From an uncultured archaeon (GTDB lineage: Archaea; Asgardarchaeota; Lokiarchaeia; Sigyniarchaeales; SOKP01): a DNA stretch of 31,086 bases. Within the stretch, counting starts at the first letter, position 1. The number at the start of each line of letters is the position of its first letter. This document shows positions 9,966 through 20,010 of this stretch, piece by piece. The notes under the pieces were generated by a model. It was given only the letters and a program-made list of their open reading frames with translations, made no database searches and was not told the DNA's origin. Made by a program: the position numbers and the translations under genes. The DNA is taken from positions 1 through 31,086 of the forward strand of contig CAZWEM010000052.1 in the NCBI GenBank assembly GCA_964632315.1, given 5' to 3'.

Positions 9966-10029
9966 GTATCGGATTTATAGAATCTTGATGAATAAATTTA
10001 GTGTTATTACAAGAATTATAGATCCGTAC
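9966..10029 (+). promoter_or_regulatory. Long stem-loop in the hdrA 5' leader
   Basis: CGGATTTATA (9970-9979) pairs with TATAGATCCG (10017-10026), with one G-U pair. TCTTG (9983-9987) pairs with CAAGA (10010-10014), and AATAA (9991-9995) with TTATT (10004-10008). Closed by GTA/TAC. Confidence 0.5.
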
Positions 10030-10065: not shown

Positions 10066-12009
10066 ATGGAAAATACCCAAAAGCATCGGATTGGATACTA
10101 TGCATGTCAGTGAGGTATAAACATACGGAGTAAAGTTGATTGCAATAAACTAGTAGAATTCGCAAAGCAATTTGATGATGTAGTCGTAGCCAAGACTCAT
10201 TCGTTCTTATGTACGGAAAGCGGTCAAAATGAAATCATGAAAGACATTGAGGAACAGAAACTGGATCGCATTATAGCTTCTGCTTGAACCCCTCGGACTC
10301 ATGAACCAGTATATCGTGGATCAATAGCAAAAACTAGTTTAAGTCCCTATTATTTTCAAATGGTCAACGTACGCGAACATTGTAGTTGGTGTACGGAAAA
10401 AAACGAAGAGGCACTTGAAAAAGCTAAGATTCTTGTAAAAGGAGGGCTTGAACGAGTAAGACGACTGGAAGTTGTGCCTGTTAAAACTGTACCCGTTGAA
10501 AAGGCAACTCTGGTTATTGGAGGCGGTATCGCTGGGATGAATGCTGCTCTAGATTTAGCAAACCAAGGTATAAAGGTATACCTTGTAGAGCAAAAATCAA
10601 CCATAGGAGGTCGAATGGCTCAATTAGATCGCACATTCCCAACGGACGACTGTTCTATTTGAATATGCGGGCCTAAGATGTTGGAGGTTAACCGTCATGA
10701 GAACATATCGATTTTGAGTTATAGTGATGTGAAAAGCGTGGAAGGATATGTTGGAAATTATGAAGTAACGGTTGAAAAAAGACCGAGATTCATCGATCCA
10801 GAAAAGTGCAACGGATGTGGTGCTTGCTCTGAGGTTTGTCCAACTTACACGACGAATTTCTTTGATGAATTTTTAGGAGCACGAAAGACTATAGATATTT
10901 CATTTGGTCAAGCAGTTCCGTTTCTTTACGATATACATCGTGAAACGTGTGTTGAATGTTTTAATTGCGTGGAAGCTTGCGAGCTCAATGCCATTGATTT
11001 TAGTCAAATCCCTGAAGAAGTTAAATTCAAGGTCGGTACAATAATTATTGCGACAGGTTGGGATATCTATGAACCCTTTGGCGAGTATGGATACGGAGAA
11101 ATCGAAAATGTGATAACACAAGCTCAATTGGAACGGATGCTAGCACCTAATGGTCCTTTAGGAGGGCATGTTCGAAGGATTTCGGATGAGAAGAAGCCAA
11201 AAGAAATTGTTTTCATACAATGTGTAGGAAGCCGGCAGACTGATAGGACTTATTGTTCGGGAGTATGCTGTATGTTAGCGCTCAAGAACGGAAAGTTGCT
11301 CAAAGAAGAATTTCCTGACGCAAATATTACGATCTGTTATATTGATATTCGAACGAACGAGAAAGGCTTTGAAGAGTATTATCAACGAGCTAAGGATTCC
11401 GACATTCGAATGATTCGCGGAAAAGTAGGTGAACTCTCTGAAGATCCTGAAACTAAAAATGTAAAAATTCGCGTTTATTCATCATTAACTGATGAAATAA
11501 TCAAGATTGATGCCGATTTAGTAGTTCTCTCCACGGCAGCCTTACCTTCAAAAGGAACTCGTGATATCGCAAAGATACTCAATTTAGACATTGATATGAA
11601 CGGTTTCTTGACTGAAAGTCACTTTGGACTTATGCCACAAGAAACGAAAGCGAAGGGAATCTTTATAGCGGGATTTGCACAGGGTCCTAAGGATATTGCA
11701 TATTCTGTTTCACAAGCGAGAGCAGCTGCAAGTAAGGTGGCTGAGCTAACATCTGCAGGAGAAATCGATTTAGAATTAATCGTTGCAGAAGTGGACAAGG
11801 CCTTTTGCATATCTTGTAGGCGTTGTGAGAAGGAATGCCCAAAGGGAGCAATCAGAATCGTTGAATCAGAGGGAGCTGTTGTAGATGAAATAAATTGCGA
11901 CGGGTGCGGAATTTGTGCTACTTGTTGCCCAACGAAAGCAATTGACATTCGCTATTATAGAGACGATCAAATTATGGCAGAAATTGATGGAATTTTAGAA
12001 GGAGGTTAA
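10066..12009 (+). CDS. hdrA: Heterodisulfide reductase subunit A, selenoprotein with three Sec (U16, U74, U199), 647 aa
   Basis: Single frame from ATG 10066 to TAA 12007-12009, interrupted only by TGA at 10111 (RIGYYACQUGINI), 10285 (IASAUTPRTHE) and 10660 (TFPTDDCSIUICGPKM). Each TGA aligns with a Cys in the paralog at 16460 (CHCGINI, VASCTPRTHE, TFPTNDCSLCILAPKM). FAD motif GGGIAG, ferredoxin insert, CVGSR..YCSGVCC and C-terminal 2x[4Fe-4S] are all intact. Merges track ORFs 10360..10662 and 10678..12009. Confidence 0.93.
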
Positions 12010-12014
12010 ACGAA

Positions 12015-12464
12015 ATGGAGCATGAATACAAGATTATAATGTTTGCATGTTTGAAATGAGGTTATGGAGCCGCCGATTTAGCTGGTGTTTCTCGAATGAA
12101 ATATACGCCCTCAGTAAAGATTATTAAGGTAAGATGTACCGGGATGGTGGATGTAAAGTATATTCTTCATTCCATTAAACAAGGAGCAGACGGCGTTATG
12201 ATCGTGGGATGAAGACCAGATGAATGCCAGTTTAAAGTTGGGAACTTCACAGCCCAGAAACATGTAGATCTCGCCAACCACATTTTAGAACGTAGAGGTT
12301 TTGGAAATCAGAGAGTCAATATGTACTGGTGTAGTAGTGCTGAATCTGAAAAATTAGTTAAAAGTGTAGAAGACGCATTTGAAAAAATCCAACGTTTAGG
12401 TCCTAATCCGATAAGTATACCGGGTTTAGAAACATCGAAAGAAGAAGTATCAACCACCCCATAG
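12015..12464 (+). CDS. mvhD: MvhD/VhuD [2Fe-2S] subunit, selenoprotein with two Sec (U15, U66), 149 aa
   Basis: Missed by the ORF track. MEHEYKIIMFACLKUGYGAADLAGVSRMKY...VRCTGMVD...GADGVMIVGURPDECQF...RLGPNP...STTP*. TGA at 12057 and 12210 align with Cys in the paralog at 19567 (CCNWCSYAGADLAG; SGCHIGDC). SD GGAGGT at 12001-12006; ends in TAG. Confidence 0.93.
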
Positions 12465-12521
12465 AATGACTCCTGTAAAAAAATTGTAGTTACAGGATGA
12501 CGATCCTTGCAAGGATGGGGT
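12456..12521 (+). promoter_or_regulatory. Eukaryote-like SECIS element in the 3' UTR of hdrA-mvhD
   Basis: Helix I: ACCCCAT (12456-12462) with ATGGGGT (12515-12521). Core: ATGAC (12466-12470) opposite TGAC (12498-12501), giving tandem G.A/A.G pairs. Helix II: perfect TCCTGTAA (12471-12478) with TTACAGGA (12490-12497). Apical loop: AAAAATTGTAG. Confidence 0.88.
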
Positions 12522-12544
12522 TTTGTATTGTTATTGTTTGTATT
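12521..12544 (+). terminator. U-rich tract after the SECIS, candidate archaeal terminator
   Basis: TTTTGTATTGTTATTGTTTGTATT directly follows SECIS helix I. Confidence 0.35.
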
Positions 12545-12581
12545 AAAAAAATGTATTTGAAAAAAAATGAATTGAAGCTCT

Positions 12582-14087
12582 ATGGTCTCAATAGAAAAAA
12601 ATATTTTTGGAAATGTATCAATCAAGAATTTAATGGATGCAACCTACGAAGCATCCACTAATTTTCAAATTCGCGCCTTCTTTGAGGCAAAAGATGAGAT
12701 ATTAAAAGCCGGTAAATATTCTGAAAAAGAATTTTATGAAATTTTAGATGCGATGATTGATGCCGAGACAAGAAGGAAAATAATCTTTGAAAACCTTCGG
12801 GGAAAAGAACCGCTATTTTTATCTGAAATCGCGAATGAAATCACCATTTTTACTCCACAAGAAGTAATACGTGATGTGATCTACCTGAAAGCTCAGGGTT
12901 ATATGGAAGAACTCATTGAAGTTAAAACAAAAATGGTCACGAAAAAGATAAAAGGAGAAGAAAAGCAGGTTGAGGTCAAAGAATACTTTTACCGTTATCA
13001 AGCGAAGGAGCTAGCAAAAGATTTCATGGAAGAATATTTTAAGCCCGTTTCAGTGGTATTTGATAGTGGTGTTTGTTGCCATTGCGGGTGGTGTCATGCT
13101 ATTTGTCCAGTCAACGCGATTAACGTTGATGCTGATAATCTTAAAATTGATGATGAAGTTTGTATGAAGTGCGGATTGTGTTTTACAGTATGCCCTCGTT
13201 CTTTTTCTATTGATCAAGCTAATGCTGCGATAAACCAATTCAATAAAGAATTAAATTGGTCTGATAAGATTGGAGCATATGTAAACGCATATTCGGCAAG
13301 TACTAAAAATGAAGATATAATTAAGGTTCGACAAGATGGAGGAATTATCACGTCGATCGCGGAATACATGCTAAAAGAGAAATTAGTGGATGCCGTTATT
13401 GCGGTACAACATTCAAAAGATTTATGGAAACCAGAACCCGTTATTATTGAAAACGTGAAGAACTTATATAAAACTGCTGGAACTAAGTATGCAAATGCCC
13501 CCACATTAAAGATCATAGAAGAAGCTAAAAAATTTGAGAAGATTGCTGTCGTGGGGGTTCCATGCATGATGAAGGCTTTAGCAAAAGGAACATTATATCC
13601 CAGTGGATTACCTTTTTTCAAAAATATTAAATATAGATTAGGACTGTTCTGCATGGAATCATTTCCTTATGATGGCATCATACAACTTGCAAAAGAACAA
13701 TTTGATAAGGATATTAATGATTTAACTAAAATGAATATTGGTGGCGGAAAATTCATTATTAGATTAAAATCAGGAGAACAATTAGATGTGCCGCTAAAAG
13801 AAGTCCAAAAATATGCCCGTGGGAATTGCCACTACTGTGAAGATCTGACTTCAGATTACGCAGATATTTCTGTAGGTTCAATTGGATCTCAAGATGGATG
13901 GTCTTCGGTTATAACTCGTACACTTGAAACAGAAAAAATCTTCCAAGATATGATAAAAAAGGGGTATATTGAATCCAAGGACCTTAAAGAGGTAAAACCG
14001 GGATTTTCTTTAGTGGAACGAATTGGAGGTTCAAAAAGATCAAAATGTACTGATCCTTATGAAAAGGTAAAATCTTCTAAAGAGTAG
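12582..14087 (+). CDS. FrhB-family F420-binding subunit with ~155-aa N-terminal helical/winged-helix-like extension and 2x[4Fe-4S] domain
   Basis: CCHCGWCHAICP, CMKCGLCFTVCPR, QDGGIIT, AGTKY, VGVPC, GLFCMESF, CHYCEDLTSDYADISVGSIGS..GWSSVITRT. Confidence 0.9.
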   Translation: MVSIEKNIFGNVSIKNLMDATYEASTNFQIRAFFEAKDEILKAGKYSEKEFYEILDAMIDAETRRKIIFENLRGKEPLFLSEIANEITIFTPQEVIRDVIYLKAQGYMEELIEVKTKMVTKKIKGEEKQVEVKEYFYRYQAKELAKDFMEEYFKPVSVVFDSGVCCHCGWCHAICPVNAINVDADNLKIDDEVCMKCGLCFTVCPRSFSIDQANAAINQFNKELNWSDKIGAYVNAYSASTKNEDIIKVRQDGGIITSIAEYMLKEKLVDAVIAVQHSKDLWKPEPVIIENVKNLYKTAGTKYANAPTLKIIEEAKKFEKIAVVGVPCMMKALAKGTLYPSGLPFFKNIKYRLGLFCMESFPYDGIIQLAKEQFDKDINDLTKMNIGGGKFIIRLKSGEQLDVPLKEVQKYARGNCHYCEDLTSDYADISVGSIGSQDGWSSVITRTLETEKIFQDMIKKGYIESKDLKEVKPGFSLVERIGGSKRSKCTDPYEKVKSSKE

Positions 14088-15213: not shown

Positions 15214-16460
15214 TGAGAATTACTGAAGCAGAAAAAGATTCTAGTTTAAACCAGGTTAAAAAGGAAGATGAAGCTTCCAGTATCTCTTTAAGATCATTAT
15301 TAAGTAAATGTTATCAATGTGCAAGATGTTCAGGGGTGTGTCAACTGTCTAAGGTTCAAAAGTTCACCCCCAGCCGTATTATTCAGAAAATATTGGAAGG
15401 ATTTGAAGATCAAGTTCTCCAATCAGGAGTGTTGTGGGATTGCTTAATGTGCAATAGTTGTCTTCAAAATTGTCCAGAAGACATAAACTTTGCTGATATT
15501 GTTAGGATAGCCCGTAGAAAAATGATAAATGAATATAATTTCGATGCGGATAATTATACTGCACATAAAGGCATCTACCTTTCAATTTCTGAACTCATGA
15601 GCAGACCAAATATAGAACCTAAAAGAAATTTGGATTGGATTCCAAAGAGTTGTAAAATTGCAGAAAAGGGAGAAGTGTTATACCATGTGGGATGTCTTCC
15701 ATATTTCAAGTTTGAATTTGATGAACTTGATCCCATTGCAATTAGTACCGTGAAACTCTTAAGTAAGACTGAGAAAAATCCAATCGTAATTCTTGAAAAT
15801 GAGTATTGCTGTGGTCACGATTTATATTGGGGACATGGAAATATGAAAGCGTTTTTATCGTTAGCAGAAAAGAATATTAACAATTTTGAGAAAGCTGGAA
15901 TAAAAAAAATCATCACCACGTGTTCTGAGGGATATCGCACGTTTAAAATTGATTATCCCAAATATTTTGAAGGATTTAATGATAAATTTGAAGTTAAGCA
16001 CATTATCGAATATGTGTACGAAAAATGGAAAGAAGGGATCATTGAATTTGATTCAACAAAAGCATATAAAGAAGGAACTACATTTTCTTTTCATGATCCA
16101 TGTCGTATGAGCAGATTTCTCCCAAAAGACAATAAAATCATGGACCAAGTTAGGGAAATATTTTCTCATCTAAAAAAAGTGGGAGTAAGTTTCAATGAAA
16201 TGCCCCATCACAAAGAAAACTCCTTATGTTGTGGAATTGGAAGCTGGATGGGATGCAATGAGCGATCAAAAGCTTTAAGATATAAGAGGTTGCTCGAAGC
16301 AAAAGAATCAGGAGATTTGATGATCACGAGTTGTCCCAAATGCATCATGCATTTTCAATGTTTACAAAAAGATTATGAGGATATTTCTGAAGTGTCTATA
16401 TTGGATTTCACGGAATTCATTCTTAACTTTATTAAATTTAAGAGCGTGAGGGATAAATAA
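15213..16460 (+). CDS. HdrD-like Fe-S oxidoreductase (HdrC-type 2x[4Fe-4S] plus two CCG domains)
   Basis: CYQCARCSGVC, CLMCNSCLQNCP, HVGC, YCCG, TTCSEG, FHDPC, LCCG, TSCPKC. ATG 15213 overlaps the upstream TGA. Confidence 0.87.
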   Translation: MRITEAEKDSSLNQVKKEDEASSISLRSLLSKCYQCARCSGVCQLSKVQKFTPSRIIQKILEGFEDQVLQSGVLWDCLMCNSCLQNCPEDINFADIVRIARRKMINEYNFDADNYTAHKGIYLSISELMSRPNIEPKRNLDWIPKSCKIAEKGEVLYHVGCLPYFKFEFDELDPIAISTVKLLSKTEKNPIVILENEYCCGHDLYWGHGNMKAFLSLAEKNINNFEKAGIKKIITTCSEGYRTFKIDYPKYFEGFNDKFEVKHIIEYVYEKWKEGIIEFDSTKAYKEGTTFSFHDPCRMSRFLPKDNKIMDQVREIFSHLKKVGVSFNEMPHHKENSLCCGIGSWMGCNERSKALRYKRLLEAKESGDLMITSCPKCIMHFQCLQKDYEDISEVSILDFTEFILNFIKFKSVRDK

Positions 16461-19400
16461 TGAATGGTTCTGTCTTGGTTATTGGTGGTGGGATAGCAGG
16501 TATACAAACATCATTAGATTTAACTGAATTAGGATTTAAGGTATACCTCGTGGAAAAAACGCCTTCCATAGGCGGTAGAATGGCACAACTGGATAAAACA
16601 TTTCCCACCAACGATTGTTCTTTATGTATACTTGCCCCGAAGATGGTTGAGGTTTTTAGAAATCCAAACATCGAATTACTTACATATTGTGAAGTTAAAA
16701 AATTGGAAGGAAAAGCTGGAGATTTCAAAGTTACTATCCTTAAAAAACCTCGATATATTGATGAGACAAAATGTAAGGGATGTGGTGACTGTGCTTCAAA
16801 ATGCCCCAAGATTGAGGTTCCTAATCTATTTGATATGAACTTAGGAAAAAGAAAGTCTGTTTATATTCCTTTCCCTCAAGCAGTCCCCCCAATCTACTTA
16901 ATAGACCCGGAAATCTGCTTGAAATTAACGAAAGGTGTATGTGGGGTATGCAGTAAGGTTTGTAAAGCAGAAGCTATTGACTATGAACAACAACCAAAAG
17001 ATATCGAATTAAATGTTGGTGCTGTGGTGGTAGCAACAGGATTTGACATGTATGCTGAAGAATTATCTACTCGGTGGGGCTATCGTTTTCAGAATGTTGT
17101 AAATGCATTAGAATATGAGCGAATTCTATGTGCTTCCGGACCATTTGGAGGACACGTCCTAAGACCAAGTGATCATAAAGAGCCTGAGAAGATTGCGTTT
17201 ATTCAGTGTGCTGGGTCAAGAGACCTCCACGAAGGAGTTCCCTATTGTTCAAGTGTGTGTTGCATGTATACAGCGAAAGAATCTATCATTACATCTGAAC
17301 ATTCTGAAAATACTCAATGTTTTGTTTTCCGTCATGATATCCGAGCCTACGGTAAAAATTTTTATGAATTTACCCAGAGAGCCCAAGATGAATATAGTGT
17401 CACCTACATTCAGACAAAAATTAGCACCATCGAAGAGGATCCCGAATCAAATGATCTTATCATCCATTATGAGGATCTACGAAATGGTGGATTTAACGAT
17501 TTTAAAGCTAATTTGGTTGTATTAGCGACTCCACTTGTTCCCTCCAAGGGAACGAAAGATTTAAGTAAAATTCTCAATATTGATCTGGACAGATATGATT
17601 TTTTCAAGGAAAAATCTTATTTTGCTAAGTCAGAGTCATCAAAAGAAGGAGTTTTCTTATGTGGATTTTGTCAAGGACCGATGGACATTCCTGAAACTGT
17701 AGCTGATGCGAGTGGTGTTGCAGCTAAAGTTGCTTCATTATTGAATACTGAAAAGTATACTGAAATTAAAGAAAAAGAGATTAAAGTTCCAGAGAAAATA
17801 GTGTCAAGCAGTGATGATCCAAGAATTGGGGTTTTAGTGTGTCATTGTGGTATAAATATTGGTAAATATGTTGATGTACCAGGGGTAGTAGATTACATTA
17901 AAACTCTTCCCGGTGTTGAACACTGCGAATCAAATCTTTATTCTTGCTCTAGCGATTCTCAAGAGAGAATCAAAGAGGTAATCCAAGAAAAAAACTTAAA
18001 TCGATTTATCGTAGCATCCTGTACTCCAAGAACCCATGAAGCCCTATTTCAAGAAACATGTGTAGAAGCGGGATTGAATAAGTATTTGTTCGAGATGGTA
18101 AACATAAGGGATCAATGCTCTTGGGTTCACATGACAGAAAATGAAGCTGCTACAGATAAAGCAAAGGATCTCATACGGATGGCAGTTGCTAAAGTCAAAT
18201 TAATCAAGCCTCAAAAAGAAGAGACATTAAAGGTCATTCAGAGTGCATTTGTAATAGGAGCTGGTGTTTCTGGTATGACAGCTTCCTTAAATCTTGCAGA
18301 TCAAAATTTTAAAGTGTACCTTATTGAAAAAGAGGACAAATTAGGTGGAAATCTTAATAATTTGAACATCCTTTATCCTATTGAAGAAAAAGCTTCAAAT
18401 TATCTTGAAGAAATTACTAATAAAGTAAAGAATCATAAGAATATTGAGATATATCTTGAGAGTTCAATTGAGAACATTAAGGGATATATCGGGAATTATG
18501 AGATAAATATTAAAGATTCAAGTAATAAAAAGAAAGAATTTAAAGTAGGCACCATCATTGTGGCGACAGGAGCTCAAGAATTAAAGCCAGATAATCTTTT
18601 TCAATATGATAAAAAAAATAAGAATGTCATTACACAATTAGAATTAGAAGAACGGTTAAAAAGAAAGGATTCGAGCTGGCTTGATGGAATAAAACGAATA
18701 ACTACGATTTTATGTGTAAATGCGCGTCAGAAGGAAGGTATCACTTACTGTTCAAATGTGTGTTGCGGAGTATCAATAAAAAATATTGGTATCTTAAAAG
18801 AATTAAAGCCAGATCTAGAAATTTTGGTATTATACCGAGATTTGCAAATGGCGAAAAAAGAATTTGAGGATTACTATCGTCAAAGGAGGAAAGATGCAAT
18901 ATTCTTAAGGTATAGCCTTGATAAAATCCCCGAAATTACCAAGATTTCAAAAGGAAAAGAACCAGAAAAGTACAATATTAATATTTTTGATACTAATTTA
19001 CAAGAAGAAATCAATTTCGAAAGTGACCTCATCATCCTTTCAACTCCAATGATACCTGCGGATAACCTTGATGGATTAGCAAAGATGCTAAAAGTTCCAT
19101 TAGATCGAACTGGTTTCTTCCTTGAGGCCCACGTGAAATTGAGACCCCTTGATTTTGCCACGGATGGCATATTTTTGGCTGGATGTGCCCAATGGCCAAA
19201 AAACATACAAGATTCTATTTCTCAAGCGACAGGTGCCGCTGGAAGAGCAAGCCGATTTCTAAGTGCAGGAGAGATAAAAACCTCCGGACTTGTTGCTGAA
19301 GTCTCATCCGAAAAATGCATTGGTTGTGGTCGTTGTGAGGAAGTATGCCCCTATAATGCGATTGAATTAATTGACACAATTAAGGAATATGAGGATGTGA

Positions 19401-19570
19401 AGATAACATTAAAGAAGTCTTACATAAATTCCGCACTTTGCAAAGGTTGTGGAACGTGTGCCGCCACTTGTCCCGTCAATGCTATTTCTGTGAAACATTA
19501 TGACTTTAATCAAATCAATGCGATGATTGATTCTTATTTACTCGATAAAACTTGTGTTGAAGGTGAATGA
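16460..19570 (+). CDS. hdrA: Large (1036 aa) Cys-type HdrA-family protein with two FAD modules
   Basis: Starts at FAD motif GGGIAG, then TFPTNDCSLC, ferredoxin insert and YCSSVCC. Internal RIGVLVCHCG...ASCTPRTHE...RDQCSW domain, second GAGVSG module with YCSNVCC, and C-terminal 2x[4Fe-4S]. Confidence 0.92.
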   Translation: MNGSVLVIGGGIAGIQTSLDLTELGFKVYLVEKTPSIGGRMAQLDKTFPTNDCSLCILAPKMVEVFRNPNIELLTYCEVKKLEGKAGDFKVTILKKPRYIDETKCKGCGDCASKCPKIEVPNLFDMNLGKRKSVYIPFPQAVPPIYLIDPEICLKLTKGVCGVCSKVCKAEAIDYEQQPKDIELNVGAVVVATGFDMYAEELSTRWGYRFQNVVNALEYERILCASGPFGGHVLRPSDHKEPEKIAFIQCAGSRDLHEGVPYCSSVCCMYTAKESIITSEHSENTQCFVFRHDIRAYGKNFYEFTQRAQDEYSVTYIQTKISTIEEDPESNDLIIHYEDLRNGGFNDFKANLVVLATPLVPSKGTKDLSKILNIDLDRYDFFKEKSYFAKSESSKEGVFLCGFCQGPMDIPETVADASGVAAKVASLLNTEKYTEIKEKEIKVPEKIVSSSDDPRIGVLVCHCGINIGKYVDVPGVVDYIKTLPGVEHCESNLYSCSSDSQERIKEVIQEKNLNRFIVASCTPRTHEALFQETCVEAGLNKYLFEMVNIRDQCSWVHMTENEAATDKAKDLIRMAVAKVKLIKPQKEETLKVIQSAFVIGAGVSGMTASLNLADQNFKVYLIEKEDKLGGNLNNLNILYPIEEKASNYLEEITNKVKNHKNIEIYLESSIENIKGYIGNYEINIKDSSNKKKEFKVGTIIVATGAQELKPDNLFQYDKKNKNVITQLELEERLKRKDSSWLDGIKRITTILCVNARQKEGITYCSNVCCGVSIKNIGILKELKPDLEILVLYRDLQMAKKEFEDYYRQRRKDAIFLRYSLDKIPEITKISKGKEPEKYNINIFDTNLQEEINFESDLIILSTPMIPADNLDGLAKMLKVPLDRTGFFLEAHVKLRPLDFATDGIFLAGCAQWPKNIQDSISQATGAAGRASRFLSAGEIKTSGLVAEVSSEKCIGCGRCEEVCPYNAIELIDTIKEYEDVKITLKKSYINSALCKGCGTCAATCPVNAISVKHYDFNQINAMIDSYLLDKTCVEGE

Positions 19571-20010
19571 ATGTGTCTAAAACTAAAGGTAAAACTACTG
19601 TAAAAAAGTTCGAACCAAACATCTTGGTATTCTGCTGTAATTGGTGCAGTTATGCAGGAGCCGATTTAGCAGGAGTGTCTCGGTTTCAGTATCCTCCAAA
19701 TATAAGAATTATAAGAGTAATGTGTTCTGGACGAGTGGATCCAGCATTCGTTTTAAAAGCATTGAAAGATGGAGCCGATGGTGTATTAATAAGCGGTTGT
19801 CATATTGGGGATTGCCATTATATATCTGGAAATGAATATACTAAAGAGCGATTCGAACGACTGCATAAAATAATTATCAAACAACTTGGGATAGATCAAA
19901 AAAGAGTTCGGTTAGAATGGGTGAGTGCTTCTGAAGGTAAACGTTTTGCTGAAGTGATTACAGAATTTACCAATCAGATTAAAGAATTAGGGCCTCTCAA
20001 TTATGAATAG
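19567..20010 (+). CDS. mvhD: MvhD/FlpD [2Fe-2S] subunit, Cys type
   Basis: FCCNWCSYAGADLAG, RVMCSGRVD, GADGVLISGCHIGDCHY, WVSASEG. ATGA overlap with hdrA. Confidence 0.95.
   Translation: MNVSKTKGKTTVKKFEPNILVFCCNWCSYAGADLAGVSRFQYPPNIRIIRVMCSGRVDPAFVLKALKDGADGVLISGCHIGDCHYISGNEYTKERFERLHKIIIKQLGIDQKRVRLEWVSASEGKRFAEVITEFTNQIKELGPLNYE

Follow-up and report, generated by a model that had tools for sequence, protein, structure and literature searches.

The window, i.e., the whole stretch of 31,086 nt that was analyzed, carries a tandem of hdrA and mvhD/vhuD genes that both contain in-frame UGA codons (Table 1). The hdrA product contains the Fer4 and related Pfam domains, and its three UGA codons, according to the translation, occupy cysteine-type positions; they are kept as in-frame stops at all three positions in 27 to 28 of the 29 orthologous loci. 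The vhuD protein matches the Pfam FlpD family with an E value of 2.7e-43, and two TGA codons are found in each of its 23 closest orthologues, which come from genomes of the same genus. Judging by the closest sequence records, the source of this DNA is a member of the Promethearchaeota (Asgard), a Lokiarchaeia-type archaeon that encodes the archaeal/eukaryotic Sec pathway; its genome comprises 4.45 Mb with a G+C content of 33%. Past the end of vhuD, the segment from 12521 to 12581 consists of a U-rich tract followed by a TATA-like sequence, TATTAAAAAA, and leads to an FrhB-like gene that begins at 12582. The U-rich tract may be an archaeal oligo-U transcription stop, and the whole segment may combine the end of one transcript with a new promoter. 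Similar U-rich tails after helix I (see below) are also found in most of the orthologues. Farther downstream, at 16460 to 20010, the window contains a second hdrA-like gene (1,036 aa, with a double module) and a paralogue of mvhD; no SECIS match was detected near these two genes.

The sequence-only reading of this DNA had placed a compact eukaryote-type SECIS at 12456 to 12521, overlapping the stop codon of mvhD, with an AUGA/UGAC core and an 8-bp helix II capped by a loop of 11 nt that begins with AAAAA; all these features, including the stop overlap, are present where they had been described. The heptamer ACCCCAU spans positions 12456 to 12462, its final U opens the UAG stop codon, and the AUGA motif starts one base past this codon. 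The heptamer had been taken for the 5' strand of a 7-bp helix I, of which the five outer pairs (ACCCC/GGGGU) are supported, whereas the inner pairs A12461-U12516 and U12462-A12515 are disfavored because they compete with a third hairpin, designated here H3, and the comparative data favor the latter. This hairpin resides on the 3' (non-bulged) strand, between the kink turn (K-turn) and helix I, so that the segment from 12502 to 12514, which had been read as an unstructured internal loop, has to be reinterpreted as a conserved structural element.

Table 1. Coordinates of the genes and RNA features discussed in the text (positions without a prefix refer to the window; prefixed ones refer to other contigs of the same genome)
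Feature	Position(s)	Strand	Comment
hdrA	about 10066-12009	+	In-frame UGA (predicted Sec) at 10111, 10285, and 10660; UAA stop; from translation
mvhD/vhuD	12015-12464	+	149 aa; predicted Sec codons at 12057 and 12210; UAG stop at 12462-12464
Helix I, 5' strand ACCCC	12456-12460	+	Within the last vhuD codons; partner 12517-12521
K-turn closing pair	G12464 with C12501	+	G12464 is the last base of UAG; C-helix, -1b/-1n
K-turn bulge A-A-U (L1-L3)	12465-12467	+	3 nt
AUGA motif	12466-12469	+	Starts one base (A) after the vhuD stop
Tandem G12468.A12500 and A12469.G12499, then C12470.U12498	12468-12470	+	C.U is the variable non-canonical position
Helix II	12471-12478 with 12490-12497	+	8 perfect pairs
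Stem strands, 9 positions	12470-12478/12490-12498	+	8 Watson-Crick pairs and a basal C.U
Apical loop AAAAAUUGUAG	12479-12489	+	11 nt
Helix II 3' side and core	12490-12501	+	12490-12497, U12498, G12499-A12500 (3' GA), C12501
UGAC	12498-12501	+	3' side of the core
Third hairpin H3, AUCCU/AGGAU, loop UGCA	12503-12516 (12503-12507/12512-12516)	+	14-nt palindrome
Helix I, 3' strand GGGGU	12517-12521	+	Partner 12456-12460
U-rich tract	12521-12544	+	Directly 3' of helix I; read from sequence only
SepSecS	C35:1139-2515	-	Within about 3 kb of aSelB
aSelB	C35:5723-7171		Within about 3 kb of SepSecS
Small SECIS-linked ORF	C3:40577-40762	-	62 aa; membrane-type peptide ending ..GGGGUGC..
Small SECIS-linked ORF	C8:107421-107705	-	95 aa; ..HSSESUL..
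Small SECIS-linked ORF	C14:57703-58161	-	153 aa; tandem UGA-UGA (..HADUUADN..)

A covariance model (referred to as R1) built from 20 orthologous vhuD 3' ends recognized the site with a score of 88.1 bits (E value, 1.6e-21), and the next-best match in the 31-kb window, with all filters off, scored 13.9 bits: the site is the sole significant SECIS within this window. A strict sequence pattern, consisting of ATGA, 9 arbitrary nucleotides, an 11-nt loop of the form AAAAA..AG, 9 more nucleotides, and GA, with no more than one mismatch in the inner 8 pairs, was found 4 times in the 4.45-Mb genome and 0 or 1 time in each of five genomes simulated with a second-order Markov model. Both results place the site well above chance. 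Searches against Rfam yielded no match at the gathering score anywhere in the window, and none of the Rfam SECIS families produced a hit around the site even at E values of up to 10. The folding energy of the 101-nt region is unremarkable (z = -0.92). Given that thermodynamic stability alone does not distinguish the element, the support for it is comparative.

The element is located at the stop codon in all 44 distinct orthologous vhuD 3' ends. Each of the other 118 genomes sampled from this family, which represent 13 genera, yielded full-length R1 matches, 1 to 9 per genome; altogether, there were roughly 550 matches in 120 genomes. In the sampled genomes of sister families, R1 had no matches in four families and a single match in a fifth. 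Base pairs were counted in an alignment of 80 orthologous and paralogous sequences (79 of them distinct) fitted to the model. In the 79 sequences, 99.5% of the helix II cells are paired, and double-sided changes occur at all 8 pairs; for helix I, the respective values are 84.5% and 5 of 5 pairs. The covariation score of the whole structure is 0.606, compared to 0.211 for shuffled alignments (none of the 500 shuffles reached it) and to at most 0.142 when the pairing partners are slid by 1 to 3 columns. Thus, the core and helix II, whose conservation in orthologous loci the sequence-only reading had left to be checked, are both kept and covarying. In both the MAFFT and the covariance-model alignments, helix I and H3 were out of register in some sequences, and for that reason constrained folding with an own-versus-cross control, which does not depend on the alignment, was added. 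With its own partner strand, helix I gains -5.69 kcal/mol, compared to -3.84 kcal/mol with the partners taken from other sequences, a difference matched by none of the 5,000 permutations.

The core has, as far as its sequence goes, the signature of a standard K-turn: a C-helix pair, a 3-nt bulge, and the G.A and A.G pairs. For the closing pair, 74 sequences have G-C and 4 have A-U, and none of the 78 sequences with letters on both sides leaves it unpaired. The bulge follows the N-A-U pattern, with A at L2 in 78 of the 79 sequences and U at L3 in every one. Positions G1b, A2b, and A1n are likewise invariant (79/79), and G2n is G in 72 sequences and A in 7. At the 3b/3n position, occupied here by C12470.U12498, standard pairing is seen in only 45.6% of the cells, in agreement with the non-canonical nature of this position in K-turns. 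The apical loop has AAA at positions 3 to 5 and ends with G in 79 of 79 sequences.

The third hairpin is conserved as well. Its two C-G core pairs are found in 74 to 75 of the 79 sequences, and the next pair covaries, being UA in 25 sequences, CG in 17, UG in 12, and AU in 6. Overall, 78% of the H3 cells are paired, and the covariation score of 0.23, compared to 0.13 for shuffled alignments, was reached by none of the 500 shuffles. The loop contains a G in 78 and a C in 73 of the 79 sequences. All 8 copies of the SECIS in this genome (see below) have H3, and when only helix II is constrained in the folding, both helix I and H3 are predicted in 40 of the 44 orthologues. The hairpin with its (Y)GCRA loop is also kept in a GC-richer sister family, despite the GUGA core found there and a sequence that differs strongly elsewhere. 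An alternative model of H3 as a hairpin capped with a GNRA tetraloop was rejected, as it left 63.5% of the cells paired and its covariation was no better than in the shuffles. Since the 3' "internal loop" is in fact a conserved hairpin on the non-bulged strand, the element can be described as a three-way junction: as shown by covariation, the functional fold predicted from these sequences joins helix I, the K-turn arm, and H3.

Two variations on this fold deserve mention. In the sub-clade that includes the window (loci L001 to L005 and L028 to L032), H3 has lost one 3' nucleotide and its register has shifted, so that the stem is now 5 bp long and the loop is UGCA; compensatory changes are seen in the outer pairs. 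In the sister family f4 (loci L168 to L170; contigs G031:C144, G029:C121, and G027:C47), a vhuD gene with one Sec codon is followed by a variant element that was missed by R1. This variant combines a GUGA core, a 9-nt stem, a 10- to 11-nt loop, and GA, followed by U-GG, a GC-rich (Y)GCRA hairpin, and helix I.

The covarying closing pair of the K-turn, helix I, and H3 with its conserved loop are, at the level of sequence comparison, additions to the published models of Asgard SECIS. The terms "lower stem," "internal loop," "hairpin," and "three-way" are all absent from the text of the paper that described lokiSECIS (Mariotti 2016, PMC4989117), a later survey mentions the lower stem and the internal loop in general terms only (Huang 2024, PMC11227280), and a 2026 review repeats the model that consists of the core, stem, and loop. 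A full-text literature search found no three-way junction for Asgard SECIS; the supplementary files of the 2016 and 2024 papers contain no SECIS structures as text, and their supplementary figures might show one. It is tempting to propose that the working form of the Lokiarchaeia-type Asgard SECIS is a K-turn three-way junction in which H3 would be required for Sec insertion, for example, by docking a SECIS-binding factor in these organisms that lack SBP2, and which would be set apart, as a structural class, from eukaryotic and methanogen SECIS alike. This proposal is tentative, with the odds somewhat against it. In the literature consulted, no in vivo test of any Asgard SECIS was found.

The genome encodes Sec machinery, namely, tRNA-SeC, SepSecS (470 bits), and aSelB with the archaeal aSelB_III domain. 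The coordinates of the tRNA-SeC gene, 2538 to 2630, would make it adjoin SepSecS if it is located on the same contig, C35. The genes found between or beside SepSecS and aSelB (C35:1139-7171) code for NUDIX, zinc-ribbon, and Roadblock/LC7 proteins. No SBP2-like gene was found at this SepSecS-aSelB locus, and a genome-wide search for an additional L7Ae/SBP2-like paralogue returned only two genes of the L7Ae family (PF01248). The same arrangement is encountered seven more times in this genome, and for six of these copies (all except the one on contig C33) the upstream ORF could be read. Each of these six ORFs contains UGA: they include two vhuD paralogues, a VhuU-like peptide with the hydrogenase C-terminal DCUxxCxxH motif, and three small ORFs (Table 1). 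The latter, located on contigs C3, C8, and C14, were not assigned to any family by Pfam and can be considered candidate new selenoproteins.

Taken together with its close match to published descriptions (see below), the element at 12456 to 12521 is very probably (with a probability of roughly 0.9) the SECIS of the hdrA-vhuD selenoprotein operon of this Asgard archaeon and a member of the lokiSECIS or Asgard type I eSECIS-like class. It could also be imagined as a general 3'-end structure unrelated to Sec, such as a stabilizer, a terminator hairpin, or a K-turn that binds L7Ae for translational regulation; indeed, it is followed by a U-rich tract, and its core sequence has everything expected of an L7Ae-type K-turn. 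However, the other copies in the genome whose ORFs could be read all directly follow UGA-containing ORFs, and R1 has no match in 12 genomes of the sister family f2, in which, among the vhuD matches listed, there is no in-frame TGA, with one exception that has a single TGA. Further, the invariant A-rich loop and the fixed geometry of 9 + 11 + 9 positions are hallmarks of SECIS that a terminator would not need. A function unrelated to Sec therefore appears extremely improbable.

The assignment of this SECIS to the entire operon calls for weighing a different arrangement, in which the 3' element would serve vhuD only and the UGA codons of hdrA would depend on a hairpin of the methanogen (GAA/A) type within the 5' leader of that gene, at positions 9966 to 10029. 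A stable hairpin does exist there (-18.6 kcal/mol), but it was found in none of the 16 readable orthologous hdrA leaders, including one that precedes an HdrA with a 91% identical N-terminal part, and the only feature kept in these leaders is the GAGGUG ribosome-binding site. For this lack of conservation, the leader hairpin was rejected as a second SECIS. The literature points the same way: the rare eaSECIS-like structures in Asgard genomes have been judged to be probably non-functional (Huang 2024, PMC11227280), and a single lokiSECIS is common to every HdrA-VhuD pair (Mariotti 2016, PMC4989117). With only 5 nt separating hdrA from vhuD, hdrA has no space for a SECIS of its own. Separate service of the two genes is thus very unlikely, and, in these sequence comparisons, the single 3' element is the only conserved SECIS candidate for hdrA-vhuD.

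The conserved UGA codons, the single 3' RNA, its secondary structure, its recurrence after UGA-containing genes, and the presence of the Sec machinery all come directly from the computation; together with the literature on the eukaryotic and archaeal Sec systems, they suggest the following scheme. The hdrA and vhuD genes and the SECIS would be co-transcribed, with the element forming the 3' end of a bicistronic mRNA. There, it would present its K-turn core (the A-A-U bulge and the G.A/A.G pairs), the 8-bp helix II, and the A-rich loop of 11 nt, and would recruit aSelB with Sec-tRNA(Sec), either directly or via an adaptor. As a result, the three UGA codons of hdrA and the two of vhuD, which lie between 256 and 2355 nt upstream of the element, would be read as selenocysteine. 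That one SECIS would act on two cistrons over 2.3 kb is proposed because no alternative is present. A ribosome that has arrived at the stop codon would have already unwound helix I and the core, so that the stop would be read as a stop even where it is UGA.

The position of the stop codon relative to the element is itself conserved. Of the 44 distinct orthologues, 29 use the UGA within AUGA as their stop; 9, the window included, have a UAG located 1 nt before AUGA; and the remaining 6 have a UAA located 3 to 13 nt before AUGA. In the seven genome copies with a readable upstream ORF, the first base of the stop codon is at most 21 nt ahead of AUGA. The sequence CCC(A/G)UAGAAUGA is kept in the orthologues irrespective of the reading frame, which points to a constraint at the RNA level. 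It had been suggested that a terminating ribosome would transiently melt the element and thereby couple termination at the vhuD stop to Sec recoding, for example, by timing or metering the delivery of Sec factors. The overlap on which this suggestion was based is real, conserved, and already published; the coupling itself received no support from the computation. The overlap and its retention in every frame are compatible with it. However, the published account is simpler: the short distance to the SECIS precludes the recoding of such a UGA, and the genome itself is compact; no coupling is claimed (PMC4989117). The conservation of G12464, the last base of UAG, is accounted for by the structure, as this base pairs with C12501, and no sequence feature demands coupling. 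In addition, given their distance, the Sec codons would be decoded by ribosomes other than the terminating one. Functional coupling of termination to recoding is therefore speculative and appears very unlikely.

As a re-identification of a published RNA class, these results change little, although they add a well-supported instance; the only part with some novelty is the refinement to a three-way junction. The large comparative set (about 550 model matches from 120 genomes) brings out features that are missing from the published models of Asgard SECIS, an RNA that has been discussed as a bridge from the archaeal to the eukaryotic Sec systems. A fuller structural model provides concrete targets for mutagenesis and pull-down experiments and would improve the SECIS-based selenoprotein finders for Asgard genomes.

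The closest known system is lokiSECIS, which has been described as AUGA before the stem, a 9-bp stem, an 11-nt loop, and GA after the stem; the loop has five leading adenines and an "ultraconserved" final G that is usually preceded by A (Mariotti 2016, PMC4989117). It adjoins or overlaps the stop codon, in one case with the UGA of AUGA serving as the stop, and every HdrA-VhuD tandem has a single lokiSECIS downstream of VhuD, apparently sufficient for as many as six UGA codons spread over about 2 kb; no SBP2 was found (PMC4989117). The subsequent work generalized these observations into the type I and type II eSECIS-like models that cover more than 400 Asgard genomes, the type I model having a stem of 7 to 15 bp with no more than 2 mismatches, a loop of 8 to 20 nt, and no ministem (Huang 2024, PMC11227280). 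In the element studied here, AUGA lies directly 5' and GA directly 3' of the stem, the 9-position stem and the 11-nt loop fit the geometry of both lokiSECIS and type I, and the loop, AAAAAUUGUAG, starts with adenines and ends with AG. The element is present in a single copy at the end of vhuD, common to an HdrA with several Sec codons and a VhuD with two, overlaps the stop, and comes from a Lokiarchaeia host equipped with the Sec pathway. As every published feature of lokiSECIS and type I is found, the element is best regarded as a further instance of this known class. The comparison with the published Asgard classes called for by the sequence-only reading thus ended in a feature-for-feature match to lokiSECIS; the description of the element as a SECIS of the eukaryote type whose helix II is short was correct, and the proposed "short-stem variant" is what had already been published as lokiSECIS. 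The published models include the core, upper stem, and loop only, whereas helix I, the closing pair, and H3 are also recognized here.

The element shares with the type I eukaryotic SECIS the AUGA...AA...GA pattern, the K-turn-type core with the G.A/A.G pairs, unpaired adenines in the loop, a location in the 3' untranslated region (UTR), and a (here presumed) action on distant UGA codons. It differs in having a helix II of 8 to 9 positions, as opposed to about 11 to 13 or more in eukaryotes, and a clean 3-nt 5' bulge with a Watson-Crick closing pair instead of a larger internal loop. In addition, it has a hairpin inserted on the 3' side and abuts the stop codon, and its hosts are not known to have SBP2. 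Membership in the eukaryotic SECIS families of Rfam was rejected, as no model matched and helix II is only 8 bp long. The SECIS of Methanococcales and Methanopyrus (eaSECIS, with the GAA_A motif) is similar in being found in an archaeal 3' UTR close to the stop codon, and the methanogen VhuD and HdrA elements also bear an AUGA_[G/A]A motif (PMC4989117, PMC11227280). However, the element has neither the GAA_A bulge nor an upper stem made solely of G and C, and its loop and stem geometry is different. An identity with the euryarchaeal eaSECIS was rejected accordingly: the GAA_A bulge and the short G/C stem are absent from the segment 12440 to 12540, where the structure is based on AUGA and GA.

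With respect to RNA architecture, the core corresponds to a standard K-turn at the level of sequence and covariation only, and the entire element resembles the k-junction, a three-way junction built from a K-turn with tandem G.A pairs and an additional helix that emerges from the non-bulged strand directly opposite the bulge (PMC4005666, PMC10573300). The k-junctions known so far are those of the TPP riboswitches and the DUF-3268 RNA, neither of which is a recoding signal (Wang 2014, PMC4005666; Li 2023, PMC10573300). The topology predicted here from sequence and covariation resembles that of Lilley's k-junction. A further difference is that, in the archaeal element, the G12464-C12501 pair and 1 to 3 unpaired nucleotides intervene between the G.A pairs and H3.
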